Positions 4,920 through 42,848 of a stretch of DNA of 63,527 nt are shown here, in pieces. Every line of letters starts with the position of its first letter. Position 1 is the stretch's first letter. This DNA is from an uncultured Mycoplasmatota bacterium (GTDB lineage Bacteria; Bacillota_I; Bacilli_A; RF39; UBA660). Under the pieces are notes generated by a model that was not told where the DNA came from, ran no database searches, and was given only the letters and a program-made list of their open reading frames with translations. The position numbers and the translations under genes were made by a program. The DNA lies in NCBI GenBank assembly GCA_947166445.1, contig CAMVED010000005.1, positions 1 through 63,527 on the forward strand, read 5' to 3'.

Positions 4920-5406
4920 AATTACCTCTTATATATATTTTTTTAAATAAATATCCATGTGATTCTTTGAACTGATTGTTTTCTATTAGTTTTAATATTT
5001 GTTCTTTTGTTAACCATTCTACTTTTTCTACTTCTTCTTTTTGTAGTGTTAAGTTATTTAAATCTATATTACAATTGAATTCATAGACACTGAAAAGACA
5101 TGGTGCTGTTGGATGCTTTTCTAATGATGTAAATCTTAGATCTTCTTTTGTTACTTTTAAACCTAATTCTTCTTGTATTTCTCTTATGATGCATTCAAGT
5201 GGGGTTTCATTAGTAGTTATATGTCCTCCAGTTGTACTGTAATCTCCACCTTTTTCTTTGCTTGTTTTTTGAATTAAATATTGATTGTCTTTGTTTTTTA
5301 TAAATACAATACTTAACATTATTTTACCTTCTGAATACTTTTTGCCGCGTTCCACTGTTTTATTTAACTTGTTTCCATTGTCATCATATAAATCTAATAA
5401 TTCCAT
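4891..5406 (-). CDS. Nudix hydrolase (IDI/YfcD-like)
   Basis: ELLDLYD N-terminus; GGHITTNETPLECIIREIQEELG; LQKEEV. Confidence 0.85.
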   Translation of the reverse strand: MELLDLYDDNGNKLNKTVERGKKYSEGKIMLSIVFIKNKDNQYLIQKTSKEKGGDYSTTGGHITTNETPLECIIREIQEELGLKVTKEDLRFTSLEKHPTAPCLFSVYEFNCNIDLNNLTLQKEEVEKVEWLTKEQILKLIENNQFKESHGYLFKKIYIRGNYEKTIICDK

Positions 5407-5419
5407 TTTTACCTCTTTT

Positions 5420-6043
5420 TTATATCTTTAATTTATTTCTTTTTGTATATCTTATTTCTTTTGTTTTTGTATCTTTTGATACAAACCACATTAAAAGTGA
5501 TCCTATAAAGTTACCTAGTATACAAATCAATATTGAAGTGTGCCAAGCTCTAGCTACTCCCATTGTTATGATGTTTGCTATGCAATGTTGGAAACCACAG
5601 AAAATGAATAAAGGTATGCCGAATATGATACCTAACGGAGTTCCTTTTCTATACATATATACTGCTATATACATTATGATTCCACATAAAACTGATTTTA
5701 CGAAGAATGCTAATGACACATCCCAAGTTTTTACTTTTTCTACTGCATTTTTGAATACTTCTGGATCTGTTACCGAGTAAAGTAATCCTAAAAGATAACC
5801 TGCGATTAGATTTATTAACAATATTGTTAATAAATCAGTTACTTTTATTTTGTCTTCAATTAGAAATCCACATTTACCTGTGAATAAGTTTTGACCCATG
5901 TAGCATACTCCAAGCAATCCTAGAGAGAAAAGAACTGGTCCAATAGGACTTCCTAGTTTTAATAGAGCGTAATCTCCAAGTGAAATTAATATTGCTGCTC
6001 CAATACTTTTGTTTATTAATTCTATTTTTTTCATAAAAAACAC
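5420..6043 (-). CDS. Short formate/nitrite transporter (FNT) family protein
   Basis: LFTG, GIICGIIM-like, FIFCGFQHCIAN, GNFIG motifs; TM-rich. Confidence 0.8.
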   Translation of the reverse strand: MFFMKKIELINKSIGAAILISLGDYALLKLGSPIGPVLFSLGLLGVCYMGQNLFTGKCGFLIEDKIKVTDLLTILLINLIAGYLLGLLYSVTDPEVFKNAVEKVKTWDVSLAFFVKSVLCGIIMYIAVYMYRKGTPLGIIFGIPLFIFCGFQHCIANIITMGVARAWHTSILICILGNFIGSLLMWFVSKDTKTKEIRYTKRNKLKI

Positions 6044-7983: not shown

Positions 7984-8457
7984 CTAATCTATCCTTTTTA
8001 CTTTAATATTATTATCTTCTTTGATGTTTATATTGTTTTCTTCTTTTATAATAGCATCTATCATATCTACTAAGCTAATGTCATCAATGGTTAAGTGATA
8101 GTTTTTAAGATGGTCGTTGATTATATCTGCCATTTCATGCAGTTTTGGTAAATCAGCAGATTTATATGATTCAATATACAATTCTTTTTTAGCCTCTTCT
8201 CCAATCATAATACCAACTTTTGTTTTTATGTCTAATATTTCTTTTAAATCATTAGCTATTTTTTCACTAACTATACCAAGTTCTTTCATTCTACTAAGTT
8301 TATACAAAATCAAAAAATGTTCTATTGTATAATTCCCATACTCAGAACCAATTCCTTTTGAAATGTAATTTCTAGTTATATCACGTACTTTTATACCCTT
8401 TGTATATATTTTTAAAAATTTTTCAAACGAAGTAAACTCTTTTTTTATATCATTCAT
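7984..8457 (-). CDS. Hypothetical protein
   Basis: Long ORF in operon orientation with SD GAGGTG; no motif recognised. Confidence 0.6.
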   Translation of the reverse strand: MNDIKKEFTSFEKFLKIYTKGIKVRDITRNYISKGIGSEYGNYTIEHFLILYKLSRMKELGIVSEKIANDLKEILDIKTKVGIMIGEEAKKELYIESYKSADLPKLHEMADIINDHLKNYHLTIDDISLVDMIDAIIKEENNINIKEDNNIKVKRID

Positions 8458-29995: not shown

Positions 29996-30069
29996 AACTT
30001 TTCTTTATTACTTGTCTCTTATTTGAATTTCTAAGGTTATTTTAACAAATTATTTTTATTTTGTAAATG

Positions 30070-30984
30070 TTATCTTCTATTTTTACCAATTATTTCTATA
30101 TCATTTGTTAGAAGTTTTACTCTTTCTATTATTCTTCTTGCTTTTACTTTATCACTTTTATCTTTAGTTACTGCTAAATTATTTTCTAATTCTTCAATAT
30201 TTAGGTTTGAGGTAAAAAATGTTGGTAAGTTTTCATTTGCTCTATATTGAAGAAGTGTTCCAAGTATTTCATCTCTACCCCATGCAGTTACGTTTTCTGC
30301 TCCAATATCATCTATGAGAAGAAATGGTACTGTTTTTATATATTCGTACTTAGTGCTGAAGGTTGCTTCTTCTGGATCACTATTCTTGAATGACGCTTTT
30401 AATGTTCTTAAAAATTCTGGAAAATAGATAATAGCACTTTTTTCGCCTTTTTTAGCAAGTTCATTAAATAGTGCTGCAATTAAATAAGTTTTTCCTGTAC
30501 CAAAGTTTCCGTGAAGATATAAACCTTTCATTTCTTCTTTTTTATAGTTTTCTAAATACTTTAATATATATTTAATAGCTTCAGTTCTAGAATTATCATC
30601 TGTATAAATATCTTTTATCTTTGCCTCTTGTAGAACTTTAGGCATATCAAATAGATTTAAATTCTCTTTATATTTATTTCTTTCAATATCTTTTTTCTTA
30701 TATCTACAAGCTTTATAAGAAAAAGTAATACTTTCTCCATCTACTTCAGGCAAGTTACAATAACCATTTACTTCGTTTTTACATTCTTCTAAACCTTTAC
30801 ATTTCATACAGTGTTCTAACTCTATAGTAGAGTTTTCAATACTCGAAGTATGTTTATATAATTCTTTTTGATCAATTTTTAATTTATTGACTATACTTCT
30901 GAAAGTTTCATCATTAAGTTTTTCCTTGAAATTTCTTTCTAAATTTTCATCTCTTTTTTCTATAAGGTTTCTTATTTGTTTCAT
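30070..30984 (-). CDS. dnaI: Primosomal helicase loader DnaI
   Basis: N-terminal Zn Cys (HCMKC..C), GNFGTGKT, LLIDDIGAE, FFTSN, ARRIIERV. Confidence 0.92.
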   Translation of the reverse strand: MKQIRNLIEKRDENLERNFKEKLNDETFRSIVNKLKIDQKELYKHTSSIENSTIELEHCMKCKGLEECKNEVNGYCNLPEVDGESITFSYKACRYKKKDIERNKYKENLNLFDMPKVLQEAKIKDIYTDDNSRTEAIKYILKYLENYKKEEMKGLYLHGNFGTGKTYLIAALFNELAKKGEKSAIIYFPEFLRTLKASFKNSDPEEATFSTKYEYIKTVPFLLIDDIGAENVTAWGRDEILGTLLQYRANENLPTFFTSNLNIEELENNLAVTKDKSDKVKARRIIERVKLLTNDIEIIGKNRR

Positions 30985-31049
30985 AGTACCACCTGTAAAA
31001 ATTGTAACATATAAAAAGTGATTTGTTAACAAATCACTTTAAAAAATGG

Positions 31050-31817
31050 CTATTTTCTAATACTTATTATTTTATCTAAGGAGTTTAGCTCTAAAAGTTC
31101 ACTTTTACACTTTTCAATTTCTTCTAATAAAGATTGTTCTTGTAACTCTAAATCTTTTCTTGTTTTATAAACATAATCATACTTTTGTTCCAGAGTTTCA
31201 ATTTTATTTAGTAAACCCTTACTTTTTAACAACAATTCTTTATGATAAATATCTAATTCATTGTTATCAAGATTATCACTATTAATCAAATCAGATATAA
31301 TATCGGAACAAAAATTAGTTAAATCTATTACATGTTTTCTATTATACCTATGGCTATTATTCCAATTAAGAACTTGATTAGTCGTAATACTTATAACATC
31401 TCTTAATGTTATAACATCGTTTGCAGTTATATTCTCTCTAATCAAGTTTAAACTCTTAGGAGGAATATTTAAATCAAGTATATTCATGTCGAGATCAATT
31501 TTACCTTCTTGTTTAAATTTATCTCTATAGTATGAAAAAGTTGCAATTCTTCCAATTTCTTTTGCATAATTAGTCCAAGAAGCACTTGGATAAATCCCAG
31601 TATTTCTATAATGTAGATAGGAAATAGATTTATCACTATTTGGAAACATTTCACTGATAACTGAAAAAAATTTGGCCTTCATATAGTTATTAATAGAACC
31701 AGTTTCATCACAAAACACAGCATTGTTATAAAAATATTTGTTGTTTGAAATGCCAGTTTCGATCATTTTAACTATGGTTCTGTAAAACTTAGCACGTTCT
31801 AATTCATAATTTGCCAT
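31050..31817 (-). CDS. Hypothetical protein with possible RNAP alpha-CTD-like segment and C-terminal coiled coil
   Basis: LDMNILDLNIPPKSLNLI..VITLRDVI resembles the alpha-CTD pattern (weak); start at MANYE after GGGGG. Confidence 0.5.
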   Translation of the reverse strand: MANYELERAKFYRTIVKMIETGISNNKYFYNNAVFCDETGSINNYMKAKFFSVISEMFPNSDKSISYLHYRNTGIYPSASWTNYAKEIGRIATFSYYRDKFKQEGKIDLDMNILDLNIPPKSLNLIRENITANDVITLRDVISITTNQVLNWNNSHRYNRKHVIDLTNFCSDIISDLINSDNLDNNELDIYHKELLLKSKGLLNKIETLEQKYDYVYKTRKDLELQEQSLLEEIEKCKSELLELNSLDKIISIRK

Positions 31818-31830
31818 TTTAAGGCCCCCA

Positions 31831-32307
31831 TTAAATAAAGGTAAACTCTGCATATGCTGAAATACCTCCTAAAGCATTGATATCTTCTTGACTTATATTA
31901 AGAACTATTTTATATGTACTATCCTCATTTGAATTAATAGTTGTTTTAAATAAAACACCTTCTTCTTTTACTATACCTTGTTTTACTATAGTATTATTTT
32001 TTAATATAGTGTAATTCATATAATTGTACGGATAAGCTTCATTAGTATTATTTAGTACAAATGATACATCTTGTTTTTTATGAGAAACATTTCTTATTTG
32101 TACACTGTGTTCTTCTTTTAAACCTGAACTTTTATCAATTTTATTATCTAATTCCGCTACTGTAAAACCTGGCATGTTATTAATAATAGCATTTGCCTCA
32201 TTGTAACTTGCTTTAACATTATTTCTTATCATAGAGAAAAATACTACAAAAACTATTACTAGGATAATTCTACATACCCTATACATTATCTCATTTTTCA
32301 TTTCCAA
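31831..32307 (-). CDS. Hypothetical exported protein
   Basis: N-terminal TM/signal, beta-rich remainder. Confidence 0.55.
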   Translation of the reverse strand: MEMKNEIMYRVCRIILVIVFVVFFSMIRNNVKASYNEANAIINNMPGFTVAELDNKIDKSSGLKEEHSVQIRNVSHKKQDVSFVLNNTNEAYPYNYMNYTILKNNTIVKQGIVKEEGVLFKTTINSNEDSTYKIVLNISQEDINALGGISAYAEFTFI

Positions 32308-32378
32308 AACCCCTCTTAAAAATGTGGCATTATTATAACATATTTTTGGGAAAATGTCAATGATCAGGGCATTTTAAA

Positions 32379-32406
32379 CAAAAAAGCAACCAATTAATGA
32401 TTGCTT
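32379..32406 (-). terminator. Intrinsic terminator closing the peptide-rSAM-PqqD-aspS-aspS operon
   Basis: Minus strand AAGCAA...TTGCTT hairpin followed by a T-run, just past the second aspS stop. Confidence 0.6.
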
Positions 32407-32420
32407 CTAATTTTTTATAA

Positions 32421-33734
32421 TTAAAGTTTTAATTTTCTTGATGGCCCTCTATATATAAAGTTTGTATCCATAATATTATCTATTTCTAAAGTTTTCATAA
32501 GTACTCTAGATAGTCCAAGGCCATAACCACCATGTGGTGGACATCCATACTTGAATAGTTCTAAATATGCTTTTAATTCATCTGGATTAATTCCTTTTTC
32601 AAGTACTTGATTTAATAATTTGTCATAGTTATGTTCCCTTAATGCACCAGTTGTTATTTCTAGACCGCGATATAATAAATCATAGCTCTTAGTATTACCA
32701 TTTTCATCTACCTGTTGATAGAATGCTCTTGATTCAAACGGAAATCCTTCTATAAATATAAAATCTGATTTAAAACATTCCAATGCATATTTGCCTAATA
32801 ATAATTCTTCTTTCCTATCAAAATCTGTTTTTCTTTCTCCAACATAATTGTATCTATTCTTTAATATTTGTTTAGCTTCAAAAAAAGTTATTCTTGGTAT
32901 AGTTGCATCTATATTAACCAATTTACTATTAAAATCATTTTTTATCATGTTGCCATATTTACTATTGAGCTTTTCAAAGCCATATTTCAAAAATTCTTCT
33001 TCAAAGTCTTCAATTTTTGAAATATTTTCTATCCATGATATTTCTACATCACACATATTAATTTCTGAAGCATGATAACTTGTATTTGATTTTTCGGCTC
33101 TGAAAGCTGGACCAATTTCAAATACTTTGTCAAATCCTGATGCCATTGCCATTTGTTTATAGAATTGCGGACTTTGTGCTAATGCTGCTTCTTGTCCAAA
33201 AAAATCTATTTTAAATACTTCACTACCGCTTTCTGCAGCTTTGGCAGTTATTTTTGGTGAATGTAATTCTATGAAATCATTTTTTATACAATACTGTCTA
33301 AGAGCATTTTCAAAATATGTTTCGATTTGGAATAATTTATAATTTTTCTCAGATCGCAAATCTAGATTTCTATAATCATGTCTAACACTTCTGCTTATAT
33401 TTTTTTCTTTATAATTTAATGGTAACTCCTCGGCTATTGATGTTACATTTATTTTAGTTGGAATAATTTCCATTCCATTTAGTTTTACATTTGGAGCTTC
33501 ATTTAATACACCTTCAATATTTACTGTACTATCAAGTGATAATGTTTTTACTGTTTCATTTAATTCCTTATTATTATCGTTTTTTTCAATGGTAACTTGT
33601 ACTTTTCCGGTATGATCTCTTAGTATCAAAAATTGAACATATTTCAAATCCTTTATATTATCTACAAAACCTGATACAGTAATTTTTTTATCTTTATATT
33701 TATTTAATTCATTCATGTATATTTTATTATTCAT
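32421..33734 (-). CDS. Divergent short-type (archaeal/AspRS2-like) aspartyl-tRNA synthetase paralog
   Basis: OB-fold LRDHTGKVQ, AQSPQFYKQ, FRAEKSNTSYH, GALREH, YGCPPHGGYGLGLSR. Confidence 0.85.
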   Translation of the reverse strand: MNNKIYMNELNKYKDKKITVSGFVDNIKDLKYVQFLILRDHTGKVQVTIEKNDNNKELNETVKTLSLDSTVNIEGVLNEAPNVKLNGMEIIPTKINVTSIAEELPLNYKEKNISRSVRHDYRNLDLRSEKNYKLFQIETYFENALRQYCIKNDFIELHSPKITAKAAESGSEVFKIDFFGQEAALAQSPQFYKQMAMASGFDKVFEIGPAFRAEKSNTSYHASEINMCDVEISWIENISKIEDFEEEFLKYGFEKLNSKYGNMIKNDFNSKLVNIDATIPRITFFEAKQILKNRYNYVGERKTDFDRKEELLLGKYALECFKSDFIFIEGFPFESRAFYQQVDENGNTKSYDLLYRGLEITTGALREHNYDKLLNQVLEKGINPDELKAYLELFKYGCPPHGGYGLGLSRVLMKTLEIDNIMDTNFIYRGPSRKLKL

Positions 33735-33757
33735 TTTACTTTCCCCCTAATAATTTA

Positions 33758-35074
33758 CTATGGTTCTATTCTGTTTGGACCTCTGAATAGTAGCATTGTT
33801 TCTTTTAAGCTCGGAAGACCTAGTAGTAACATGGTTAATCTATCAACTCCTATTGCAAATCCTCCATGTGGTGGACATCCATATTTAAAGAAGTCTAAAT
33901 AGAAATCTACGTCTTTTCCCAAACCTTTTTCTTTTGCTTGAGCTTTTAATATTTCATATCTATGTTCTCTTTGTGCTCCAGTTGTTATTTCAGTACCTCT
34001 CCAGATTAGGTCATATCCATTTGGAATACCATTTTCATCTCTCATATGATAGAATGCTCTTTTTTTGCTGCTAAAACCTGTTATAAATATAAATTCATGG
34101 CCATATTCTTCCATGGCATATTTAGATATTAATGATTCTGTTTCATTGTTCATATCTCCTACATCTTCTTCAGGAATCTTATATCCATATCTTTTATTTA
34201 GTTCTTGGTATACATCATTTAAATCCATTCTAGGAAAAGGTTTTGAAGGTACTATTACTTCTTTACCAAATATTTCTTTTATAGTTTCTCCATATTTTTC
34301 TTTTACCTTTGTAAGACCTGCAATTAAAAGATCTTCTTCTACATTCATTACGTCTTCAACACTATCAACATAAGCAAATTCTAGGTCAAATGATGTATAT
34401 TCAGTAGCATGGCGATAAGTATTAGATTTTTCTGCTCTAAATACTGGTCCTACTTCAAACACTTTATCAAGTCCACTTGCTAATACCATTTGTTTATAAA
34501 ATTGTGGTGATTGAGCTAAATAAGCACTTCTTTCAAAATACTTAACTTCAAAAACTTCGCTACCTGATTCTGAAGCAGCTGCTATTAGTTTCGGACTATG
34601 TATTTCACAAAAATTATTTTTATATAAATAATCTCTCATTCCTTCAGTCATACAGGATTCAATTTGTCTAATAAGCATATTCCTTTCATTTCTAATATCT
34701 AAGAAACGGTAATCAAGTCTTGTATCAATGTTAACCCCATCTAAATTATTATAGTCATATGGAAGTTCTTCTGCTTGTGATAAAACTTTTACTTCTTCTG
34801 GAATAATTTCTATTCCTCCAAGTTTTACTGCTTCGTTTTTTGAAACAGTACCATTTACTTCTACAACTGAATCTTTAGTTACTTTTTGGAACAATTCAAT
34901 CATTTCAGCATTTTTTTCTTCACTTTTTTCTAGTGTTAATTGAACTTTTCCTGTTGAGTCTCTTAGCACTACAAACATTACCCATTTTTTATCTCTTACT
35001 GTGTCTACAAAACCACTCATTACTACTTCTTTTCCAAGATGCTTTTCTAATTCATTTACAAATACTTTCTTCAT
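33758..35074 (-). CDS. aspS: Short-type (archaeal/AspRS2-like) aspartate--tRNA ligase
   Basis: LRDSTGKVQ, AQSPQFYKQ, FRAEKSNTYRH, GAQREH, YGCPPHGGFAIGVDR: all canonical. Confidence 0.93.
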   Translation of the reverse strand: MKKVFVNELEKHLGKEVVMSGFVDTVRDKKWVMFVVLRDSTGKVQLTLEKSEEKNAEMIELFQKVTKDSVVEVNGTVSKNEAVKLGGIEIIPEEVKVLSQAEELPYDYNNLDGVNIDTRLDYRFLDIRNERNMLIRQIESCMTEGMRDYLYKNNFCEIHSPKLIAAASESGSEVFEVKYFERSAYLAQSPQFYKQMVLASGLDKVFEVGPVFRAEKSNTYRHATEYTSFDLEFAYVDSVEDVMNVEEDLLIAGLTKVKEKYGETIKEIFGKEVIVPSKPFPRMDLNDVYQELNKRYGYKIPEEDVGDMNNETESLISKYAMEEYGHEFIFITGFSSKKRAFYHMRDENGIPNGYDLIWRGTEITTGAQREHRYEILKAQAKEKGLGKDVDFYLDFFKYGCPPHGGFAIGVDRLTMLLLGLPSLKETMLLFRGPNRIEP

Positions 35075-35145
35075 ATTATTAACTCCTTTTTAATACATGT
35101 TTTTTTTATTTTATATTTTTTTTAAGTTTAAATCAATATTAATAA

Positions 35146-35406
35146 TTAAAATTCTTCAAAGATTCCGCATATTTTCATTTTTTCATAGAACTCTGTAACA
35201 TCTTTTTCAACTATTGATTTTTCAACATTGTACATTTTAGAAACGTCATTAATCAATGCTTCAAGAGTGTCACACTTTTTTGATTCATCAAGTATATTTT
35301 TTCCTATTTCATTAATTGTTATTATCTTTGAGTATGGCGTCATTGTAATATATTCATCATCTGATTCTTTTCTAATCCTTAAAAGTTTTGTTTTATACTT
35401 TTTCAC
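35146..35406 (-). CDS. PqqD family RiPP recognition element (RRE)
   Basis: 86 aa; INEIGKNIL...Y.V....EKDVTEFYEKM..CG winged-helix pattern; GTG start 7 nt after GAGGTG, overlapping the rSAM end. Confidence 0.82.
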   Translation of the reverse strand: MKKYKTKLLRIRKESDDEYITMTPYSKIITINEIGKNILDESKKCDTLEALINDVSKMYNVEKSIVEKDVTEFYEKMKICGIFEEF

Positions 35407-36406
35407 AGCTCATCACCTCATCTAAAATCTCATCATATGAGAAATCACAATTACGAGTTTCCTTGCATCCAGAATGGCAACGCTCAAATAAGTCACATGT
35501 TTTACATTTATCTGGTAACCATTTCATACTTCTGTATTCCATTAGCATTTCATCATTATTCCATACTTCTTCTAAATTATTTTTAAAAATATTACCTAGT
35601 TTTTTGTAAGTATATGAACACGGTTGAATATTACCATCGCAATCAATACTTATATAATTTTGTCCAAATCCACAATTACCAACATACTTTAAGTGTTTTG
35701 GATTTTCTACAATACACAATGGAAAATGTATGGCATATTTAAATGTTGTATCCTTATATTTGCTAGCTAGATAATCTATATCTTTTAACGTATTATTAAT
35801 TTGCTCGACAGATAGTTTTAAACTATCACTTATTTTTTTAGGCAACTCTGGATTTGAAATATATCTATTAAATGCAAATGCTTTTATTTCATACTTATCT
35901 TTTAAATCTTCTACAAATTCTTTAATATCAGTATAATTGTTTGCAGTAACTGTCATGTTTATAGTTAATGGTATTTTTAATTTGTTAATTTTTTCAATGG
36001 TATTCCTTATAATTTGATATTGTTTTTCATTAGATCTCGTTAATCTACAATGGCTGGCCATTGATCCATGTATTGATACAGCAATTCCATCTAAAGTATT
36101 AGCAAAATCAGTAAACTCTTTACGCCAAATCATACCGTTTGTTATAAGTGTTGTAAAAAATTCTTTATTTTTAGCATATCTAACAAGTCCAACTATATCA
36201 TTATATACTAATGGCTCTCCTCCAAAAAAGTTTATTCTCAAAACATTATTATCATATAATGTATCTATTATATTTTTTAATCTCTCAGCACTAACATCTT
36301 TTATTTTTTTATTGCTCATGTGCTCTACCCCGCAAAAAATACAATTACCATTGCAGTTTCTAGTCACAATAAAATTGGCAGTAATTGGTGTTTTATAATA
36401 CTTCAT
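35393..36406 (-). CDS. Radical SAM / SPASM-domain peptide maturase
   Basis: CNGNCIFC (CX3CX2C), GGEP, TNG; SPASM CGFG..IDCDGNIQPC..CKTC..FERCHSGC; SD AAGGAGG. Confidence 0.92.
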   Translation of the reverse strand: MKYYKTPITANFIVTRNCNGNCIFCGVEHMSNKKIKDVSAERLKNIIDTLYDNNVLRINFFGGEPLVYNDIVGLVRYAKNKEFFTTLITNGMIWRKEFTDFANTLDGIAVSIHGSMASHCRLTRSNEKQYQIIRNTIEKINKLKIPLTINMTVTANNYTDIKEFVEDLKDKYEIKAFAFNRYISNPELPKKISDSLKLSVEQINNTLKDIDYLASKYKDTTFKYAIHFPLCIVENPKHLKYVGNCGFGQNYISIDCDGNIQPCSYTYKKLGNIFKNNLEEVWNNDEMLMEYRSMKWLPDKCKTCDLFERCHSGCKETRNCDFSYDEILDEVMSCEKV

Positions 36407-36425
36407 AATTACCTCCTTTTTAGTA

Positions 36426-36455
36426 TCAATAGAGTGTTAAAAAACACTCTATTGA
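36426..36455 (-). other. Perfect 13-bp stem-loop between precursor and rSAM (no U-tail)
   Basis: TCAATAGAGTGTT-aaaa-AACACTCTATTGA. Confidence 0.8.
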
Positions 36456-36562
36456 CATGGTGGATCACAAGAAAACGCAACGATTTCTTTTTCGTTTTCT
36501 TTTGAAATTTTGATAGCTTTATTTCCTTGTTTTAGCTCAGCTGTTGGCTTTTCCCATTTCAT
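36449..36562 (-). CDS. Putative RiPP precursor peptide, 37 aa (MKWEKPTAELKQGNKAIKISKENEKEIVAFSCDPPCQ)
   Basis: Hand translation; SD AAAGGAG 8 nt before ATG; WxxP leader motif; Cys-containing C-terminal core; directly upstream of rSAM+RRE; absent from the ORF track. Confidence 0.82.
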   Translation of the reverse strand: MKWEKPTAELKQGNKAIKISKENEKEIVAFSCDPPCQ

Positions 36563-36709
36563 TTTCACCACTCCTTTCAAATTTTAGTTTTTTAATGAGA
36601 TCCCTATAAACTCAATTTTTTACAAAGAATAAAAAAAGGCGAAAGCATAATAAAGCCATGATATATAAGCCTTAAAACTCTCTCACCTCTCTTTTAAATA
36701 ATTGTCATT

Positions 36710-36738
36710 AATATACACCTAAACTATTATCCTGTCAA
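36710..36738 (-). promoter_or_regulatory. SigmaA-type promoter for the RiPP/aspS operon
   Basis: TTGACA-17 nt-TATATT on the minus strand. Confidence 0.7.
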
Positions 36739-36774
36739 TAATCACTATTGCTATTTTAAACAAAAAAGAAACTT

Positions 36775-37221
36775 TTATTTAGTTCCTGTTGAGCCAAATC
36801 CTCCAGTTCCTCTTTGAGTATCAGACAATTCTTCTACTTCTAGAAATTCTGCTTTATAAAATGGCATTATTACCATTTGAGCGATTCTTTCTCCATTTGA
36901 TATAGTTTGATCTATATTTGAGTGATTATGTAGTGCTACCATTACTTCTCCTCTGTAATCAGAATCAACTACTCCAACTTTATTAGCAGGAGCAAGTCCT
37001 TTTTTTGTAGCTAATCCACTTCTAGCAAATATCATTCCAGCATAACCTTCAGGTATTTCCATAGATAGTCCTGTTTTTACCAGGAACGTTTCATGTGGTT
37101 TTATAATTATATCTTCATCAAGGATAGCATATAAATCAAAACCTGCAGCACACGCTGAACCATAACTTGGTATTGTTGCTCTTTCATCTAATTTTTTTAT
37201 TCTTACTTGTCCACCTAGCAT
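36775..37221 (-). CDS. dut: dUTP diphosphatase
   Basis: AGFDL, RSGLA, GVVDSDYRGE, ERIAQ, RGTGGFGSTG; start at MLGGQ after GGAGG. Confidence 0.95.
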   Translation of the reverse strand: MLGGQVRIKKLDERATIPSYGSACAAGFDLYAILDEDIIIKPHETFLVKTGLSMEIPEGYAGMIFARSGLATKKGLAPANKVGVVDSDYRGEVMVALHNHSNIDQTISNGERIAQMVIMPFYKAEFLEVEELSDTQRGTGGFGSTGTK

Positions 37222-37724
37222 AATACTTCCTCCTCTAGTTTTACTAAACATATTTTTTTATTTTTTAAACTTTTTTTAACATCTATTACTCTTTGATTTG
37301 AAGAACCTCTGTATTTTAATCTAAAATCATGTAATTCATCTTGATACCTTCCGTCTACTAAGACATCTACATATTTAAATACTTCTTTATCTTTGATATT
37401 TTCAAATAGGAATCCTGACCACATCCAGATGTTTTTATTTGGATACTTTTCTTTAAATGCTTTTGCAAGTTTTGTTGTGTTTTCTTCATTTTTTGGATGC
37501 ATTGGTTCTCCTCCAAGGATAGATAATCCTTTTATATAATCTTTTTCTGCAAGTTCTAGGATTCTATCAATTGTCTTACCAGTAAACTCTTTTCCTTTTT
37601 TAAAGTCCCAAGTTTCTGGATTGAAACAATTTTTACAATGAAATTCACATCCTTGCATAAAGATCGATACTCTTACACCAGGTCCATTCGAAATATCCAT
37701 TTTTCTTATTTTGTTATAGTTCAT
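37215..37724 (-). CDS. nrdG: Anaerobic RNR activating enzyme
   Basis: NGPGVRVSIFMQGCEFHCKNCFN, LGGEP, GSSNQR. Confidence 0.95.
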   Translation of the reverse strand: MNYNKIRKMDISNGPGVRVSIFMQGCEFHCKNCFNPETWDFKKGKEFTGKTIDRILELAEKDYIKGLSILGGEPMHPKNEENTTKLAKAFKEKYPNKNIWMWSGFLFENIKDKEVFKYVDVLVDGRYQDELHDFRLKYRGSSNQRVIDVKKSLKNKKICLVKLEEEVLC

Positions 37725-39919
37725 TATTCTTCGTCATCCTTATTATCTATATGAATTACTCTATCTCTTATTTCTTCAGTTCTACCTTTGTTCCAAAAGT
37801 TTGTTCCAATGTATCCACAAGTACGTCTTGCAACATTTAACTTGTCATGATCCCTATTTCCACATTCTGGACAATACCATTCTAGATTATCATCTAATAA
37901 GATTTCTCCAGTATAACCACATTCTTGGCAATAATCGCTTTTAGTATTAAGTTCTGCATACATGATATTGTCATAAATGAACTTAATAACTTCCATTACT
38001 GATTCTAGATTGTTTTCCAAGTTTGGTGTTTCAATATAAGATATTGCTCCTCCGGGAGATAATTTTTGGAAATCTGCTTCTAGTTTTAATTTGGTAAAGG
38101 CATCTATTTCTTCGAATACAGGAACGTGATATGAATTAGTTATATAATCTCTATCAGTTATTCCTTTAATCTTTCCAAATCTTTCTTTTAGGCCTTTTGC
38201 AAATTTATATGTTGTTGATTCAATTGGTGTTCCATATACTGAATAATCTATATCTTCTGCTTCTTTCCAGACTTTACAAGCATCATTCATTTTTTGCATT
38301 ACTTCAATCCCAAACTCATAACCTTTTCCTTTATCTGTATGAGAGTGTCCTGTCATATATTTTACGCATTCATAAAGCCCTGCGTATCCAAGTGAAATTG
38401 TTGAATAGCCATGGTGTAATAATTCATGAATTGATTCACCTTTTTCAAGTCTAGCTAGCGCACCATGTTGCCAAAGGATTGGTGCTACATCACTTGTTGC
38501 CTTTGACAATCTTTTATGTCTTATTTGAAGTGCTCTATGACACATTTCTAGTCTTTCATCAAATATTTTCCAAAATATATCCATATCTTTTCCAGATGAC
38601 AATGCTATATCTGGTAAATTTAGTGTTACAACGCCTTGGTTAAATCTACCATAATATTTTCCTTTTCCTTCGACATAGTTTTTAGCTCTTGCAACGTTCC
38701 CTCTTGAGATTGATCTATCTGGAGTTAAGAATGATCTACAACCCATACATGGATAACATTCTCCTTCTCCATATTCATTTTTCTTTAATTCTTTCATTAC
38801 TTTTTCTGAAATGTAATCTGGCACCATTCTTTTAGCAGTGCATTTTGCAGCAAGTTTTGTTAAGTAATAATATTTTCCTTTTGGGTTAATATTATCTTCT
38901 TCAAGAACATATAAAAGTTTAGGAAAGGCTGGTGTTATATAAACTCCTTTTTCATTTTTCATACCTTCAATTCTTTGATTTAAGAATTCTTCAATTATCA
39001 TGGCAAGTTCATCTTTGTATTCTTCAGTTTCTCCAAGATACATATTTACAGACAAGAATGGTGCTTGTCCATTTGTGTTAGTCATAGAATTTATTTGATA
39101 TTGGAATGTTTGAACACCATCTACTATTTCTTTGTGCAAGTCTTCTTTAGCAAACTTTTCACATTCAGCTTTTTTGAAACCTCTTTTTTTATACTTATCT
39201 AAAAATCTATTATATGAGTCCCTTACAAATGGTGCTAAATGAGTTAGTGAAATTGTTGCTCCACCATATTGAGATGATGTTACTGCTGTAATTATTTGAG
39301 TTGCAATAGTCATTGCAGTTAAAAATCTATGTGGTTTTTCTATCATTACTCCATTCATATTTGTGCCATGTTGTAGCATGTCATCTAAATTTATAAGATC
39401 ACAGTTGTGAAGAGCGTTTTGGGCAAAATAGTCAGCATCATGAAAATGAATTATTCCTTCTTCATGGGCTTTAACTATGTCTTCAGGTAGTAAAAATCTT
39501 TTTGTAATATCAGTAGATGTGATACCTGCCAAATAATCTCTTTGAGTAGTTACTACTTTAGCGTTTTTATTTGAGTTTTCTGTATTCCAATACTCATTTT
39601 CGCCATCTATTAATTCTTTGATAGCTAAGTCTGTTGTATTACTTCTTCTCACTAGTTCTCTCGTATATCTATAGGTTATATATCTTTTAGCAAGTTGATA
39701 CTTACCAATAGACATTAATTTCATCTCAATAATATCTTGTATATCTTCTACTAAAATTCTTTTTTTACCAAGTTTTTCGATATACTTAATGATGTTTTTG
39801 ATTTGGACAGGAGATGCTTGTTCCTCTTCTTCTACTTCCATATTTGCTTTTTGAATTGCGTTTTCTATTTTTTCTGGGCAATAATCAACCATATGTCCAT
39901 CTCTTTTAATTACTTTCAT
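37724..39919 (-). CDS. nrdD: Anaerobic (class III) ribonucleoside-triphosphate reductase
   Basis: ATP-cone VIKRDG, CMGCRSFL, Zn motifs, glycyl radical RRTCGYIG; start at MKVIKR. Confidence 0.96.
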   Translation of the reverse strand: MKVIKRDGHMVDYCPEKIENAIQKANMEVEEEEQASPVQIKNIIKYIEKLGKKRILVEDIQDIIEMKLMSIGKYQLAKRYITYRYTRELVRRSNTTDLAIKELIDGENEYWNTENSNKNAKVVTTQRDYLAGITSTDITKRFLLPEDIVKAHEEGIIHFHDADYFAQNALHNCDLINLDDMLQHGTNMNGVMIEKPHRFLTAMTIATQIITAVTSSQYGGATISLTHLAPFVRDSYNRFLDKYKKRGFKKAECEKFAKEDLHKEIVDGVQTFQYQINSMTNTNGQAPFLSVNMYLGETEEYKDELAMIIEEFLNQRIEGMKNEKGVYITPAFPKLLYVLEEDNINPKGKYYYLTKLAAKCTAKRMVPDYISEKVMKELKKNEYGEGECYPCMGCRSFLTPDRSISRGNVARAKNYVEGKGKYYGRFNQGVVTLNLPDIALSSGKDMDIFWKIFDERLEMCHRALQIRHKRLSKATSDVAPILWQHGALARLEKGESIHELLHHGYSTISLGYAGLYECVKYMTGHSHTDKGKGYEFGIEVMQKMNDACKVWKEAEDIDYSVYGTPIESTTYKFAKGLKERFGKIKGITDRDYITNSYHVPVFEEIDAFTKLKLEADFQKLSPGGAISYIETPNLENNLESVMEVIKFIYDNIMYAELNTKSDYCQECGYTGEILLDDNLEWYCPECGNRDHDKLNVARRTCGYIGTNFWNKGRTEEIRDRVIHIDNKDDEE

Positions 39920-39990
39920 ATACTTACCTTCTTTCTTCTTTTTGATTATTTTCTCATGATATGAATATATCATATTTTTTAAAAATAATT

Positions 39991-40008
39991 TTGTTGTACT
40001 TGCAACAA
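39991..40008. promoter_or_regulatory. Putative Crp/Fnr-family operator (TTGTTG-N6-CAACAA)
   Basis: Palindrome with CRP-type 6-nt spacer between divergent nrdD and the crp/fnr gene. Confidence 0.55.
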
Positions 40009-40048
40009 TTTACAAAAAAGTTTATAATTTTTTTTAGAGGTGTAAAGT

Positions 40049-40678
40049 ATGAAAAAATTGTTCGATGATATTTCTCATACCAATAAAGGAAAATTGTTAA
40101 AACTTTTGCAAACTCATACCTTTACATTTAAGAGTGACAAAAATATACTTTCTCCAATAAAAGGTGATAACATCATCGGAATAGTGGCTGAAGGCTCAAT
40201 TAATATTGTACAAAATAACTATAATGGTGAAAAAATTGTGGTTGAAAGACTTAACAAAGATGATGTCTTTGGCACTATGTTTTTAGATATTGCAAATGAT
40301 GATTTTGACATTATAACTTTAGAAGACTCAAAAATTATTATTATTGACTTTAAAAATATTATTAATAATAGTTTTTATCATTACTCTTATTATCATAAAT
40401 TCATTAGTAATTTACTGAATATTGTTTCTGAAAAAATGAAAGAAAAAAACGAAAGAATACAATTACTTTCTCAAAAAACAATTAGAAATAAACTTCTTGA
40501 ATATTTTAAACTAAAAACAGAAAACAGAATAACTAAAAACGTTTATTTACCTTATACTTTTACTGAACTTGCTAATTATTTAGGAGTTGATAGAAGCGCG
40601 ATGTATAGAGAACTAAAGCATTTACAAGATGAAGGTTTAATTGAAATAAAAAATAAAAAAATTACTCTAAAGTATTAG
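40049..40678 (+). CDS. Crp/Fnr family transcriptional regulator (HcpR-like HTH)
   Basis: cNMP-binding fold; HTH FTELANYLGVDRSAMYREL. Confidence 0.88.
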   Translation: MKKLFDDISHTNKGKLLKLLQTHTFTFKSDKNILSPIKGDNIIGIVAEGSINIVQNNYNGEKIVVERLNKDDVFGTMFLDIANDDFDIITLEDSKIIIIDFKNIINNSFYHYSYYHKFISNLLNIVSEKMKEKNERIQLLSQKTIRNKLLEYFKLKTENRITKNVYLPYTFTELANYLGVDRSAMYRELKHLQDEGLIEIKNKKITLKY

Positions 40679-40729
40679 AGTTTTTATTTTTCACAAACAT
40701 TTTGCTATTTCATATATTACACTAGATAG

Positions 40730-40987
40730 GTGAATTATATGAATATTGATACTTTAAACAATTTATCTTTGGGAGAAGATGCTATTATACTCGAAAACAA
40801 TGTGAAAGGCAGGAACAAAAGACATTTAACTAATTTAGGCCTTTCTAGTAAAAATAGAATAAAATGTTTATACAAAAGTCCTTTGAATGATCCAGTTGCA
40901 TACAAAATTAAAAATGTAATAATTGCTATTAGGGAAGAAGATTCTAAAAATATAATTATAATGAGGAATAATAATGGGACTAACTAG
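40730..40987 (+). CDS. feoA: Ferrous iron transport protein A
   Basis: RHLTNLGL, SPLNDPVAY, IAIREEDS. Confidence 0.88.
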   Translation: MNYMNIDTLNNLSLGEDAIILENNVKGRNKRHLTNLGLSSKNRIKCLYKSPLNDPVAYKIKNVIIAIREEDSKNIIIMRNNNGTN

Positions 40988-42848
40988 AAATTCTAAAAAG
41001 TTTAAAAACAGAAATAAAGAAAATTATACCAAAGATGATAAAAACATAATAGCTCTTCTAGGTAATCCTAATGTAGGTAAAACTACTCTTTTCAACACAT
41101 TAACTGGTCTTCATAATCACACTGGCAACTGGCCCGGTAAAACCGTATCTAATTCTGAAGGAATACTTAAAACAAGTAATAAGACTTATAATCTTATTGA
41201 CTTACCAGGAATTTATTCTTTAAATCCATACTCCGAAGAAGAAATAATTGCTAAAGAGTTTATTGAGCAAAGAGATATAGACATTATTTTAATAGTGGTG
41301 GATGCCACTTCTTTGGAAAGAAATTTAAATCTTGTTTTGGAAACCAAAAATATTAAAAATAATATAATTGTTTGTTTAAATCTTTTAGATGAAGCTAAGA
41401 AGAAAAGCATTAATATCGATATAAATTTATTAGAAAAATCTCTTGGCCTTCCTGTTATTGGAACTGTAGCTCGTAATAAAAAAGGTATTAAAGAACTTAT
41501 TAATAAAATTGAAACTTTCGAGTTTCCTGATGAAAATGAAGAATTTCTGATTGACACAGAATCTAAAGCTAAAGAGATTTATAACAAAGTCGTAAAACTT
41601 GATGATGAAAACTATAATAAAAAAACTATAAAAATTGACAAGATATTAACATCTAGAGTTTATGGAATACCTATTATGTTATTAACGCTTGGAATAATAC
41701 TCTGGATAACTATAATAGGTGCAAACTATCCATCCGAAACTTTAAGTAAACTGTTTTCTTTCATTTATGATAAGTTGTTAACACTGTGTGTTAATATGCA
41801 CTTAAATAAAACATTTATAGATTTATTTTTAAATGGTATTTATAAAGTGATTGCTTGGGTTATATCAGTTATGCTACCTCCAATGGCCATTTTCTTTCCA
41901 ATGTTTACTCTTTTAGAGGATCTTGGATACTTGCCTAGAATATCATTTAATACTGATAGGATATTCAAAAAATGTGGTTCTAATGGTAGGCAGTCTCTTA
42001 CTATGTGTATGGGATATGGATGTAATGCATGTGGTGTTATAGGATGTAGAATAATAAATACTACAAAAGAAAAAATTATAGCAATACTTACTAACGTTTT
42101 TTCTCCATGTAACGGACGTTTTCCAAGTTTAATTGCAATTACTTCAATATTTTTAGTTTCAGGTATTGGAAATAAGTTTGTTAAATCAATTACTTCTGCA
42201 CTTATTCTTTTAGGTTTAATAGTATTTTCATTTCTTATCACTCTTTTGATTTCAAAGATACTATCGAAAGTTATTTCTGGAGAAGATGCGAGTTTTACTT
42301 TAGAACTGCCTCCCTATAGAAAGCCTAAAATAATCGACACTATTATTAGATCCATACTTGATAGAACAATATTTGTTTTGGGACGTGCTATTGCAATATC
42401 AGTTCCTGCAGGAATTATAATATGGCTCTTAGCAAATATAAATATTGGTGATGTTTCTGTTCTTTCTCATTTAGAAAATATACTTGCTCCAATTGGAAAC
42501 TTTATGGGTCTAGATGGTGCAATACTGCTTGCTTTTCTTTTAGGAATGCCTGCCAACGAAATAGTAATTCCTATAATGCTTATGATTTATTTACAAACTA
42601 CTACTCTAACTGATTATTCTTCTCTTGAGCAATTAAGGGAAATACTAGTTAAAAATAACTGGACTATTATTACTGCCATAAGTTTTTTAATATTTACAAT
42701 ATGTCATTTTCCTTGTGGCACAACAATACTTACAATAAAAAAAGAAACTGGTAGTATAAAATGGACTATACTTTCTATAGTTATTCCTACTGTTACCGGG
42801 ATAGTATTATGTGTTATTATATCGAACTTGTTGAGGTTATTTATTTAA
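40974..42848 (+). CDS. feoB: Ferrous iron transport protein B
   Basis: GNPNVGKTT, GNWPGKTV, DLPGIYSL, CNGRFP, ELPPYR. Confidence 0.95.
   Translation: MGLTRNSKKFKNRNKENYTKDDKNIIALLGNPNVGKTTLFNTLTGLHNHTGNWPGKTVSNSEGILKTSNKTYNLIDLPGIYSLNPYSEEEIIAKEFIEQRDIDIILIVVDATSLERNLNLVLETKNIKNNIIVCLNLLDEAKKKSINIDINLLEKSLGLPVIGTVARNKKGIKELINKIETFEFPDENEEFLIDTESKAKEIYNKVVKLDDENYNKKTIKIDKILTSRVYGIPIMLLTLGIILWITIIGANYPSETLSKLFSFIYDKLLTLCVNMHLNKTFIDLFLNGIYKVIAWVISVMLPPMAIFFPMFTLLEDLGYLPRISFNTDRIFKKCGSNGRQSLTMCMGYGCNACGVIGCRIINTTKEKIIAILTNVFSPCNGRFPSLIAITSIFLVSGIGNKFVKSITSALILLGLIVFSFLITLLISKILSKVISGEDASFTLELPPYRKPKIIDTIIRSILDRTIFVLGRAIAISVPAGIIIWLLANINIGDVSVLSHLENILAPIGNFMGLDGAILLAFLLGMPANEIVIPIMLMIYLQTTTLTDYSSLEQLREILVKNNWTIITAISFLIFTICHFPCGTTILTIKKETGSIKWTILSIVIPTVTGIVLCVIISNLLRLFI

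Follow-up and report, generated by a model that had tools for sequence, protein, structure and literature searches.

QhpD uses an acceptor of the same type as that of PapB, with the Cys N-terminal to the acidic acceptor, and microcin C targets aspartyl-tRNA synthetase (AspRS). The streptococcal NxxC RaS-RiPP system NxxcA/NxxcB was reportedly described by Caruso et al. in 2019. NxxcB forms a β-thioether from Cys to the residue at position −3 and accepts Asp in place of Asn (PMC9389541). PapB joins Cys to Asp or Glu beside the carboxylate (PMC12373016, PMC9413430). In the tiarins (the trifolitoxin family), a core residue matches the aminoacyl-tRNA synthetase (aaRS) encoded in the biosynthetic gene cluster, and a divergent GNAT provides immunity (Travin et al. 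2025, bioRxiv 10.64898/2025.12.02.691738).

The DNA analysed here is a stretch of 63,527 nucleotides (the window) from an uncultured Mycoplasmatota bacterium. A short precursor gene in it is followed by genes for a radical SAM (rSAM)/SPASM maturase and a separate PqqD-type RRE. We interpret these genes as an undescribed three-gene RiPP cassette in which the maturase would form an Asp-Cys thioether, and we give this reading a probability of roughly 0.6. The features of the locus are listed in Table 1.

Table 1. Positions in the window of the cassette, its signals and the block that carries it.
Feature	Position	Strand	Details
Promoter-like site TTGACA-17-TATATT	36710..36738	minus	11/12 matches; 5′ edge of mobile unit
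5′ leader hairpin (about 15 bp), then U-run	36625..36694	minus	−34 kcal/mol, z = −2.9
Shine-Dalgarno AAAGGAG	36571..36577	minus	8 nt 5′ of ATG; sequence read
Precursor gene	36449..36562	minus	37 aa; leader MKWEKPTAEL..., core ...SCDPPCQ with invariant D33-x-P35-C36
Perfect 13-bp stem-loop	36426..36455	minus	−18.1 kcal/mol, z = −5.8; overlaps precursor stop; without U-run
Radical SAM/SPASM maturase	35393..36406	minus	337 aa; PF04055 75.8 bits, PF13186 43.3 bits
PqqD-type RRE, separate protein	35146..35406	minus	86 aa, GTG start; PF05402 32.9 bits (cut-off 23.4)
AspRS1, archaeal-type	33758..35074	minus	438 aa; NF003483 471.7 bits (cut-off 353)
AspRS2, archaeal-type	32421..33734	minus	437 aa; NF003483 434.6 bits (cut-off 353)
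4.3-kb mobile block	32401..36723	minus	leader, precursor, maturase, RRE, AspRS1, AspRS2
Intrinsic terminator closing unit	32382..32408	minus	

Precursor peptide, maturase and RRE

The translation of the precursor gene is MKWEKPTAELKQGNKAIKISKENEKEIVAFSCDPPCQ. A preliminary description had claimed an unannotated 37-aa ORF with a strong Shine-Dalgarno sequence at this place, and both the translation and the AAAGGAG ahead of the ATG agree with it. The Shine-Dalgarno segment is identical in the window, in the block copy of a second species (L082) and in L006, which is related to the window by vertical descent. The precursor contains a single Asp codon and two Cys. A small ORF ending in D-x-P-C was found upstream of every maturase homologue of the D-x-P-C group with readable upstream DNA, a comparison that covered 35–95% maturase identity and about 13 distinct genomic contexts. 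The precursor, maturase and RRE genes always co-occurred in the family loci. The same description had proposed the peptide as the substrate of the adjacent rSAM/SPASM enzyme and had named a conserved small ORF upstream of rSAM homologues as the check. This co-conservation confirms, at the level of sequence comparison, that the 37-codon ORF is a genuine conserved precursor peptide for the adjacent enzyme.

The precursor alignment showed that only D, P and C are invariant. The D-x-P-C motif forms the C-terminus of the precursor and is followed by 0–4 residues, and the leader sequence diverges across the family. The CDPPC core as first drawn was too long: its D-x-P-C part stands, but L042 and L033 have Ala, and L018 has Thr, in place of the Cys before the Asp, and the residue that follows the Asp changes to Gln in L033 and to His in L018. 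The core is kept despite synonymous codon differences, e.g., GATCCACCATGT vs. GATCCGCCTTGC. A precursor profile search retrieved 18 clusters among 5.8 billion proteins, all ending in (C/A/T)D(P/Q/H)PC, and the family is rare. The leaders keep an N-terminal aromatic residue followed by a β-strand-like stretch, and the spacing from this aromatic residue to the core Asp is a constant 30 residues. The fixed spacing and the strand-like stretch fit a leader bound by an RRE. Of the WxxP motif that had been proposed for RRE binding, the aromatic residue is conserved, but the Pro at +3 is common and not invariant.

A PqqD-like RRE had also been predicted, and it is present in the window as a protein of its own, not as a fused domain. 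Its ORF overlaps the end of the maturase gene by 14 nt. Every family locus has the RRE after its maturase; in L010/L011 and L042 the two are fused, with the RRE at the C-terminal end of the maturase. The maturase of the window carries no fused RRE, and its rSAM motif starts from residue 13. The CxxxCxxC motif consists of C18, C22 and C25, the SPASM part holds seven further Cys, and all 3 + 7 Cys are invariant in an alignment of 20 homologues. The AF2 model of the maturase had a pLDDT of 89, and its fold neighbours in Foldseek were the peptide-crosslinking SPASM enzymes SuiB, SkfB, PqqE and CteB. Structure prediction and Foldseek together confirm the predicted SPASM peptide-maturase fold. The best sequence matches of the maturase were PqqE (104.8 bits; PDB 6c8v, 85.5 bits) and MftC (90.9 bits), and it stayed far under every curated-model cut-off (PqqE 381, MftC 265, PapB 340 and SCIFF 425 bits).

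In the proposed mechanism, the RRE would bind the N-terminal strand of the leader, and the C-terminal core would be presented to the maturase. The 5′-deoxyadenosyl radical would take a hydrogen from Cβ of the Asp, the most likely position, which neighbours the carboxylate. An auxiliary Fe-S cluster would hold the thiolate of the Cys, whose attack would form the thioether and close a four-residue ring (−2 Da). The first Cys of CDPPC would be a dispensable, optional extra; the ring, if any, would join the Asp and the Cys three residues downstream. By analogy, a Cys-to-Asp thioether in a four-residue ring with the geometry of NxxcB on N-x-x-C is the most likely product, and the Cys-Asp thioether suggested at the outset is our best guess for the core. 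The invariant Pro before the Cys is left unexplained by the thioether model. Sequence and fold do not discriminate between a thioether and a C-C crosslink, epimerisation or decarboxylation, with SuiB, PqqE and MftC equally near.

Family distribution and the mobile block

No curated model matched the D-x-P-C precursor family, and the family was not found in the literature, where "CDPPC" occurs in unrelated uses only. Radical-SAM peptides whose end is invariably Asp-x-Pro-Cys form a previously undescribed family. The literature on radical SAM, RiPP and aspartyl-tRNA synthetase together yielded only microcin C/ThiF reviews. A scan of GTDB species gave one true relative (L033), and a metagenome scan gave three (L041–L043). 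Among these, L043 has a related rSAM and PqqD pair and was left out of the family because its upstream ORF does not contain D-x-P-C. The viral-contig scan returned only generic rSAM proteins with ≤31% identity. The maturase was absent from 60 relatives.

Most family members are located on plasmids or in mobile regions, with ABC transporters, signal peptidase or amidase genes nearby. ABC transporters lie 3′ of the cassette in L010, L017 and L042. In L015/L016, the cassette is carried by a small plasmid, and a divergent GNAT gene is situated 94 nt upstream of the precursor. A protease or exporter is absent from the cassette in most contexts, and none is present in the block of the window. AspRS is missing from 11 of about 13 family contexts. 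L008/L009 represent a distant family member in which a bacterial-type aspS overlaps the precursor start, amid genes for transposase, toxin-antitoxin and repressor proteins. A LysRS gene of L008 was not counted as part of an aaRS pattern; it is 4 kb off, beyond the transposase and toxin-antitoxin genes.

As judged by predicted signals and homology boundaries, the cassette of the window forms the first part of a single promoter-to-terminator unit, which moves as a block and also carries two archaeal-type AspRS genes, a context that the preliminary description had left out of account. The promoter-like site is conserved in L082 and L006. The leader hairpin sits between this site and the precursor gene, and L082 and L006 form the same structure from stems of different sequence. 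The hairpin, which matched no Rfam family, may act as an attenuator or as a terminator with an insulating role. A stem-loop or terminator follows the precursor in 13/15 family loci, with unrelated sequences; the one in the window probably controls the ratio of precursor to enzyme or makes the precursor mRNA more stable. Near the cassette, neither a T-box nor a riboswitch turned up in an Rfam scan of 30000–41000 (E ≤ 1); the only hit of the scan, a weak SAM-II match inside nrdD, was taken as chance. The gene beyond the unit terminator has its own 12/12 promoter at 32360–32332. A possible internal promoter is located at 35136–35108, before AspRS1.

The block was 92.9% identical to L082 (6680–11009), and homology, which starts at 36723 within the spacer of the promoter-like site, dropped sharply at both ends. 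The five-gene block shows 93–95% identity between the window and L082, and the flanking housekeeping DNA shows 76–80%. In the second species (G002), the block is located exactly where a sister strain carries a T-box and a bacterial aspS. A scar is left there, made up of the terminal ~10 nt of the bacterial aspS and of the terminator of that gene, and the T-box of the native gene was lost on replacement. At the dut site, the window and L006 carry the block, and the nearest relative, G007, has a bacterial aspS there. Archaeal-type AspRS was absent from 16/16 same-genus genomes. This gene order indicates that the AspRS genes of the block replaced the host aspS at two different loci. No bacterial aspS was found in 755 kb of the window's genome, which is 53% complete, and within this coverage the linked AspRS seems to be the sole AspRS and not a duplicate. 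The RiPP genes stayed intact through both vertical descent (window vs. L006) and horizontal transfer (L082). One and the same five-gene unit has overwritten the essential aspS at two chromosomal sites in one genus, an exceptionally clear natural experiment.

AspRS1 matched the Thermococcus AspRS 3nel with 329 bits, and its catalytic motifs are intact. AspRS2 shares 46% identity with AspRS1. Its identity to archaeal-type AspRS proteins from related genomes is 54–59%, and it has the motif-2 loop in common with them. It has a private Q365L change in GAQREH and is missing in L006. AspRS2 was considered as a degenerate copy and this was rejected, since its "odd" motif-2 loop is common to the sole archaeal-type AspRS of related genomes. 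By their motifs, both proteins look like normal enzymes. In related genomes that lack the cassette, both AspRS types occur as normal single genes.

Function of the product

The block carries AspRS genes that replaced the host aspS, which hints that the product acts on AspRS. We tentatively suggest that the product, or a fragment released from it by a peptidase, may be a Trojan-horse-type inhibitor or antimetabolite of AspRS, and that the linked AspRS genes may be insensitive immunity copies; by analogy with known inhibitors this is possible, at well under even odds. This suggestion extends the three-gene-cassette explanation and is not exclusive of it. Specificity would come from the invariant Asp, and the block would be a self-sufficient, partly addictive module that makes a sensitive native aspS dispensable. 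The inhibitor might be, e.g., a β-thio-substituted aspartate derived from the D-x-P-C ring, so that an Asp-specified, rSAM-built compound would come with a 4.3-kb module that overwrites the native aspS; we put this forward with similar reserve. The joint travel of the five genes at an identity well above that of their flanks and the displacement of the native aspS at two sites (that of the G002 species and the dut site) are consistent with it. So is the second, independent AspRS adjacency in L008/L009; we infer a chance of ~3e-4 for aspS adjacency in 2/13 contexts. The divergent GNAT on the L015/L016 plasmid, the ABC transporters of L010, L017 and L042, and the precedents of the tiarins and microcin C point the same way. 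Against an action on AspRS stand the 11 of about 13 contexts without AspRS and the occurrence of both AspRS types as ordinary single genes in related cassette-free genomes. No adenylate-like or nucleotide-adding enzyme is present. The linked AspRS, seemingly the sole copy in a genome only 53% complete, may also simply be the housekeeping gene, unlike in the tiarins.

In-situ displacement is common for aaRS genes. It is possible, if doubtful, that an ordinary archaeal-type aspS operon gained the cassette on its upstream side by chance and then spread by displacing aspS in situ. The function of the peptide would then be unrelated to AspRS, e.g., that of a bacteriocin or a signalling peptide. Such a history agrees with the normal appearance of AspRS1 and AspRS2 and their intact motifs, with the possible internal promoter before AspRS1, and with the many family members that lack AspRS and reside on plasmids or mobile regions beside ABC transporters, signal peptidase or amidase genes. 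It requires, however, two independent coincidences (the block and L008/L009), it leaves unexplained why the invariant core residue is Asp, and it is opposed by the retention of intact RiPP genes in both L006 and L082.

An intracellular small-molecule cofactor like PQQ or mycofactocin, for which the Asp and Cys would be joined by a crosslink and cut out of the peptide, is quite improbable. The architecture is the same: the core sits at the C-terminus of a tiny precursor, the rSAM/SPASM enzyme has no RRE fused to it, and PqqD is encoded separately; PqqE and MftC are the best sequence matches, and the block has no exporter or protease. However, the PqqE and MftC scores are far under the cut-offs, none of the family members has PqqB/C/F-like or MftD/E/F-like tailoring genes in its vicinity, and the rSAM gene is missing in 60 relatives. 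The patchy, plasmid-borne and strain-variable distribution, together with the ABC transporters, better suits a secreted product.

It is very improbable that the ORF is no substrate at all but an open frame that arose by chance or a leader peptide regulating the aspS operon: its 37 codons fall below gene-calling cut-offs and lie, flanked by hairpins, upstream of aaRS genes, but the comparative data already speak against this reading, through protein-level conservation with rSAM/PqqD in loci without any aaRS, a D-x-P-C motif invariant through synonymous changes, only one Asp codon, and no match to a T-box or other Rfam leader.

The three-gene cassette defines a RiPP family that is new and very small and whose minimal motif has four residues, which makes it a clean system for the action of an rSAM/SPASM enzyme with a separate PqqD on an Asp...Cys pair. 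If the product acts on AspRS, it would open a new chemical route to aaRS inhibitors, and the block would be an antibiotic-plus-immunity module that drives housekeeping-gene displacement, both a weapon and an addiction element. The family would then consist of RiPPs directed at an aaRS but made by enzymes unrelated to those of microcin C and the tiarins, and it would offer the first case of an immunity aaRS displacing the housekeeping gene. If the product does not act on AspRS, the block is still a well-documented example in which an aaRS gene was displaced in situ by a xenologue, with a biosynthetic cassette as passenger.

Comparison with known systems

The resemblance to the tiarins is one of logic only and not of membership: an invariant Asp occurs with AspRS in the block and in L008/L009, and a GNAT occurs in L015/L016. 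The enzymes of the cassette are rSAM and PqqD only, and the loci contain neither the TfxB/TfxC FMN-dehydrogenase pair, which in the tiarins goes with a conserved Gln in the core, nor a YcaO. The linked AspRS seems to stand in for the housekeeping gene and not to be a second copy of it, and most D-x-P-C members have no aaRS. The cassette differs from microcin C in that the MccB (ThiF-like) adenylyltransferase is absent from the block and from all family loci read.

The cassette shares the three-gene logic of PqqA/D/E and MftA/B/C, with a separate PqqD-type chaperone and a core at the extreme C-terminus. It differs from the PQQ system in the low PqqE score of its maturase, in having no Glu/Tyr E-x3-Y core, and in the absence of pqqB/C from the loci read. 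It differs from mycofactocin in the low MftC score and in a C-terminus that is D-P-P-C-Q, not Gly-Val-Tyr. Unlike both, the D-x-P-C family is mobile and patchy and comes without downstream tailoring genes. The SCIFF model gave the maturase 75.2 bits, and the precursor has two Cys, vs. six in about 45 residues in SCIFF peptides.

PapB and QhpD use an acidic acceptor of the type proposed here for D-x-P-C. The preliminary description had named the Cys-to-Asp link of PapB-type ranthipeptides as an example, but the cassette does not fit the PapB family: the maturase scored 85.4 bits with NF047865, and the order of residues is reversed. Freyrasin, the ranthipeptide of PapA/PapB, has six C-x3-D repeats in which the Cys precedes the Asp, whereas here a single D-x-P-C has its Cys C-terminal to the Asp.

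The core also resembles that of NxxcB in a comparison of motif and architecture. Both systems have a single rSAM/SPASM enzyme and an acceptor three positions before the Cys, and D-x-P-C has the same spacing and order as N-x-x-C. No shp/rgg quorum-sensing context was seen in the D-x-P-C loci, unlike in the NxxC systems. The RRE of NxxcB is a fused N-terminal domain, whereas here it is a separate protein or a C-terminal fusion. The acceptor in the D-x-P-C family is always Asp, and the residue before the Cys is always Pro.

The precursor operon

Translation of the minus strand confirmed the coordinates, the peptide and the Shine-Dalgarno (SD) sequence that the preliminary description had given for the 37-aa precursor ORF, which runs from ATG to TAG and encodes MKWEKPTAELKQGNKAIKISKENEKEIVAFSCDPPCQ. 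The precursor had no Pfam or NCBIfam matches. A second SD, AAAGGAGG, lies twenty nt past the stem-loop at the end of the precursor gene, ahead of the maturase gene. The leader hairpin, located between the unit promoter and the precursor SD, had no Rfam match; on the related contigs L082 and L006, the same structure is built from different stem sequences. The hairpin may act as an attenuator or, alternatively, as an insulating terminator travelling with the block.

Coordinates of the features in the window
Feature	Position	Strand	Remarks
Block (4.3-kb unit)	32401-36723		
Promoter-like site	36738-36710	-	5′ bound of the unit
Leader hairpin	36625-36694	-	about 15 bp, with U-run
SD AAAGGAG	36577-36571	-	8 nt 5′ of the precursor ATG
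Precursor ORF	36562-36449	-	
Perfect 13-bp stem-loop	36455-36426	-	-18.1 kcal/mol, z = -5.8; encloses the precursor stop codon
PqqD-type ORF	35406-35146	-	86 aa, GTG start; overlaps the last 14 nt of the maturase gene; PqqD 32.9 bits, cut-off 23.4
Promoter-like TTGATT-17-TAAAAT	35108-35136	-	in the 71-nt PqqD-AspRS1 gap
AspRS2	32421-33734	-	437 aa
Terminator	32408-32382	-	3′ bound of the unit
SAM-II riboswitch-like match	39548-39601	-	inside the nrdD coding region

The maturase (337 aa; Radical_SAM 75.8 bits, SPASM 43.3 bits) begins right at its CxxxCxxC motif, and therefore has no fused RRE. Its ten key cysteines (three rSAM and seven SPASM) were all invariant among 20 homologues. No curated family model claimed it; the scores were 104.8 bits for PqqE (cut-off 381), 90.9 for MftC (265), 85.4 for PapB (340) and 75.2 for the SCIFF maturase (425). 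The nearest solved structure by sequence profile was PqqE (6c8v, 85.5 bits, full length), and the AlphaFold model (pLDDT 89) was most similar to the folds of SuiB, SkfB, PqqE, CteB and anSME. The predicted fold places the maturase among the peptide-modifying SPASM enzymes, and it does not tell the bond type.

The PqqD gene is followed after 71 nt by AspRS1 (438 aa; NF003483 471.7 bits, cut-off 353) and, after a 23-nt gap, by AspRS2 (434.6 bits with the same model), which share 46% identity. The promoter-like site in the 71-nt gap could allow AspRS expression independent of the RiPP genes. The gene past the unit terminator has its own perfect promoter. AspRS2 carries Q365L in the otherwise invariant GAQREH, beside the Asp-binding Arg. 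This sole private change found is shared by the copies in the window and in L082; AspRS1, the Thermococcus AspRS and four related genomes do not have it. Most other motif changes of AspRS2 are typical of its lineage. Elsewhere, the weak SAM-II-like match (27.9 bits, gathering score 44, E = 0.065) is probably due to chance.

A precursor family ending in D-x-P-C

The maturase query returned approximately 30 homologues, metagenomic without exception, and the surrounding DNA was inspected on 12 encoding contigs and 4 from collection scans. A small ORF lies directly 5′ and a PqqD gene directly 3′ of the maturase in all loci read except one; PqqD is fused to the maturase C-terminus in L010/L011 and L042. 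The leaders are highly divergent (e.g., MKYEKPSVSLRKG..., MENNFETVTVEVVSIYD..., MNNKQKYTTPIVVISDND... and the GC-rich MSKTEFEMPRIVISRPDG...), and every family precursor ends in D-x-P-C plus 0–4 residues.

The precursor expected upstream of rSAM homologues was present at the loci read as a D-x-P-C ORF, with the exception of L043. The preliminary description was largely right about the kind of gene and imprecise about the motif, for which it had proposed a CDPPCQ core. Only the Asp, the second Pro and the last Cys are invariant columns in the precursor alignment, whereas the first Cys, kept in most members, gives way to Ala in L042 and L033 and to Thr in L018, and Asp is followed by Pro, Gln or His. 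An aromatic residue (W/Y/F) stands at a constant 30 residues ahead of the Asp. A profile search with this alignment in 5.8 billion proteins gave only 39 candidates and 18 hits, all with the D-x-P-C ending. The core codons vary synonymously from locus to locus, and in 13 of 15 loci the stop codon of the precursor gene is followed by a strong stem-loop or true terminator, of unrelated sequence. Sequence comparison indicates that the precursor ORF is a real gene under selection. The D-x-P-C family is new; the literature search found no description of a D-x-P-C or CDPPC precursor family.

L043 (483-4139) encodes a maturase-like enzyme (39% identical) and PqqD, yet its upstream ORF (72 aa, Lys-rich, ending SSSSAHIAAGSAG) has no D-x-P-C. 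After the pair comes a 694-aa protein in which a QueC-like (PP-loop) domain is weakly recognised. The pair is probably a sister or neighbouring family with a different core and was left out of the family. In L007, a 408-aa NTP_transf_2 nucleotidyltransferase-domain protein (4531-5757) is encoded directly 5′ of the precursor, preceded by genes for a 526-aa rSAM protein and for PALP, RpiB and SDR proteins; this lineage may have an extended cluster.

Some cassettes (precursor, maturase and PqqD) are carried on small Mob/Rep plasmids. L015/L016 is an 8.7-kb Mob_Pre plasmid, assembled as a concatemer, with the whole cassette, Fic, a HicB-like gene and a divergent GNAT acetyltransferase gene 94 nt 5′ of the precursor, which has a 4-residue tail (CDPPCQLPW). 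The L017/L018 plasmid (Rep3/MobA) has an ABC transporter; the L018 precursor is short (23 aa, MKKYSKPSIKTNGKNVKNTDHPC), and in L017, the same region, the ORF is broken by a frameshift. The cassette also lies beside ABC transporters in L010 and L042, beside a SipW-like signal peptidase in L143 and in mobile-element contexts in L014 and L144.

Block transfer and the AspRS linkage

The maturase rSAM was not found in 60 relatives, and archaeal-type AspRS in none of 16 same-genus genomes, whose AspRS is bacterial-type (approximately 580–600 aa). The block and L082 6680-11009 share 92.9% identity, and homology ends sharply on both sides. The L082 flanks match G002, a species of the same genus, at 98.7% identity and the window genome at only 76–80%; therefore, the five genes moved together between species, recently. 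L006, without AspRS2, has the synteny of the window, and its flanks (84–88%) are on par with its block genes (81–88%), so its block was inherited vertically.

Where L082 has the block, G002 has bacterial-type aspS behind a T-box leader (136.6 bits). One junction falls on the -35 hexamer and the other inside the final ~10 nt of aspS, just 5′ of the aspS terminator, which persists in L082. This site is empty in the window genome (76 bp). The window's own block site reads dut-block-158 aa-...-dnaI, where G007, the closest relative, reads dut-aspS(bacterial)-185 aa-...-dnaI. Thus, the block took the place of native aspS at two different loci. Bacterial-type aspS was not found in the 755 kb of the window genome (53% complete). 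The native T-box lies at L088 (G002) 8096-8305 (-) and the block has none, so tRNA-Asp-responsive AspRS control was lost upon replacement. The dut-dnaI site of G002 (L032 3684-6698) holds a second nrdD/nrdG pair; this slot is a variable region of the genus.

We tentatively consider that the product may be directed at AspRS. AspRS adjacency was found in two independent cases in approximately 13 contexts: the block, and L008/L009, where, despite a maturase identity of only 47%, a canonical bacterial aspS (696 bits) stops 10 nt past the precursor ORF start, among transposase, RelB/ParE and repressor genes. We estimate the chance of two such cases at approximately 3e-4, taking one or two aspS per 1,000–2,000 genes. 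No other aaRS type lies directly beside the cassette in these contexts. Plasmid carriage, the divergent GNAT, ABC transporters, signal peptidase and mobile contexts elsewhere also favour this reading. Microcin C targets AspRS. Tiarin RiPP clusters carry a divergent GNAT for immunity, and their aaRS specificity corresponds to a conserved core residue (bioRxiv 10.64898/2025.12.02.691738). The parallel with tiarins is the agreement of the cluster aaRS with the conserved core residue, together with the divergent GNAT. The parallel with tiarins and microcin C hints at a product that acts on AspRS and owes its specificity to the invariant Asp. We speculate, by analogy, that the active species might be a beta-substituted aspartate unit freed by peptidases.

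However, most family members have no AspRS, and the block AspRS looks like the sole AspRS of the genome, not a duplicate. Related genomes carry both types as ordinary genes (identity with AspRS1 is 61% for the AspRS of G330, and identity with AspRS2 is 54–59% for those of G018, G020, G037 and G042), and the catalytic motifs are intact. We consider plain hitch-hiking about as likely as an AspRS-directed product, each with a rather low probability, and other or unknown links take the rest.

Proposed chemistry and known systems

We infer the chemistry, as we do the AspRS link. Only three residues are never lost in the family: Asp, Cys and the Pro ahead of that Cys. To our knowledge, where a Cys thiol takes part in an rSAM/SPASM reaction, a thioether is formed; here, a C-C crosslink or other radical reaction may occur in place of the thioether. 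QhpD links Cys beside the carboxylate of an acidic acceptor. Likewise, the PapB thioether acceptors, Asp and Glu, adjoin the carboxylate (PMC12373016, PMC9413430). NxxcB joins the Cys of N-x-x-C through a beta-thioether to the residue three positions ahead of it, and accepts Asp at that position (PMC9389541). D-x-P-C shares the order and spacing of this motif, which favours a Cys36-Asp33 thioether. By this analogy, the PqqD protein would hold the aromatic/beta-strand segment at the leader N-terminus, and one bond from Cys36-S to Asp33-C(beta) would produce a ring of four residues (-2 Da), with the first Cys of CDPPC as an optional extra.

PapB substrates have the opposite order, Cys ahead of Asp (C-x0-6-D), whereas Cys follows Asp here; judged by its motif, the family falls outside the PapB-type ranthipeptides, strictly defined. 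By the tests run (NxxcB compared by motif and domain layout), it is not a member of the NxxC, ranthipeptide, PqqADE or MftABC groups; its gene organisation is like that of PqqADE or MftABC, and its working mode would be like that of an NxxC-type or ranthipeptide-type thioether RiPP.
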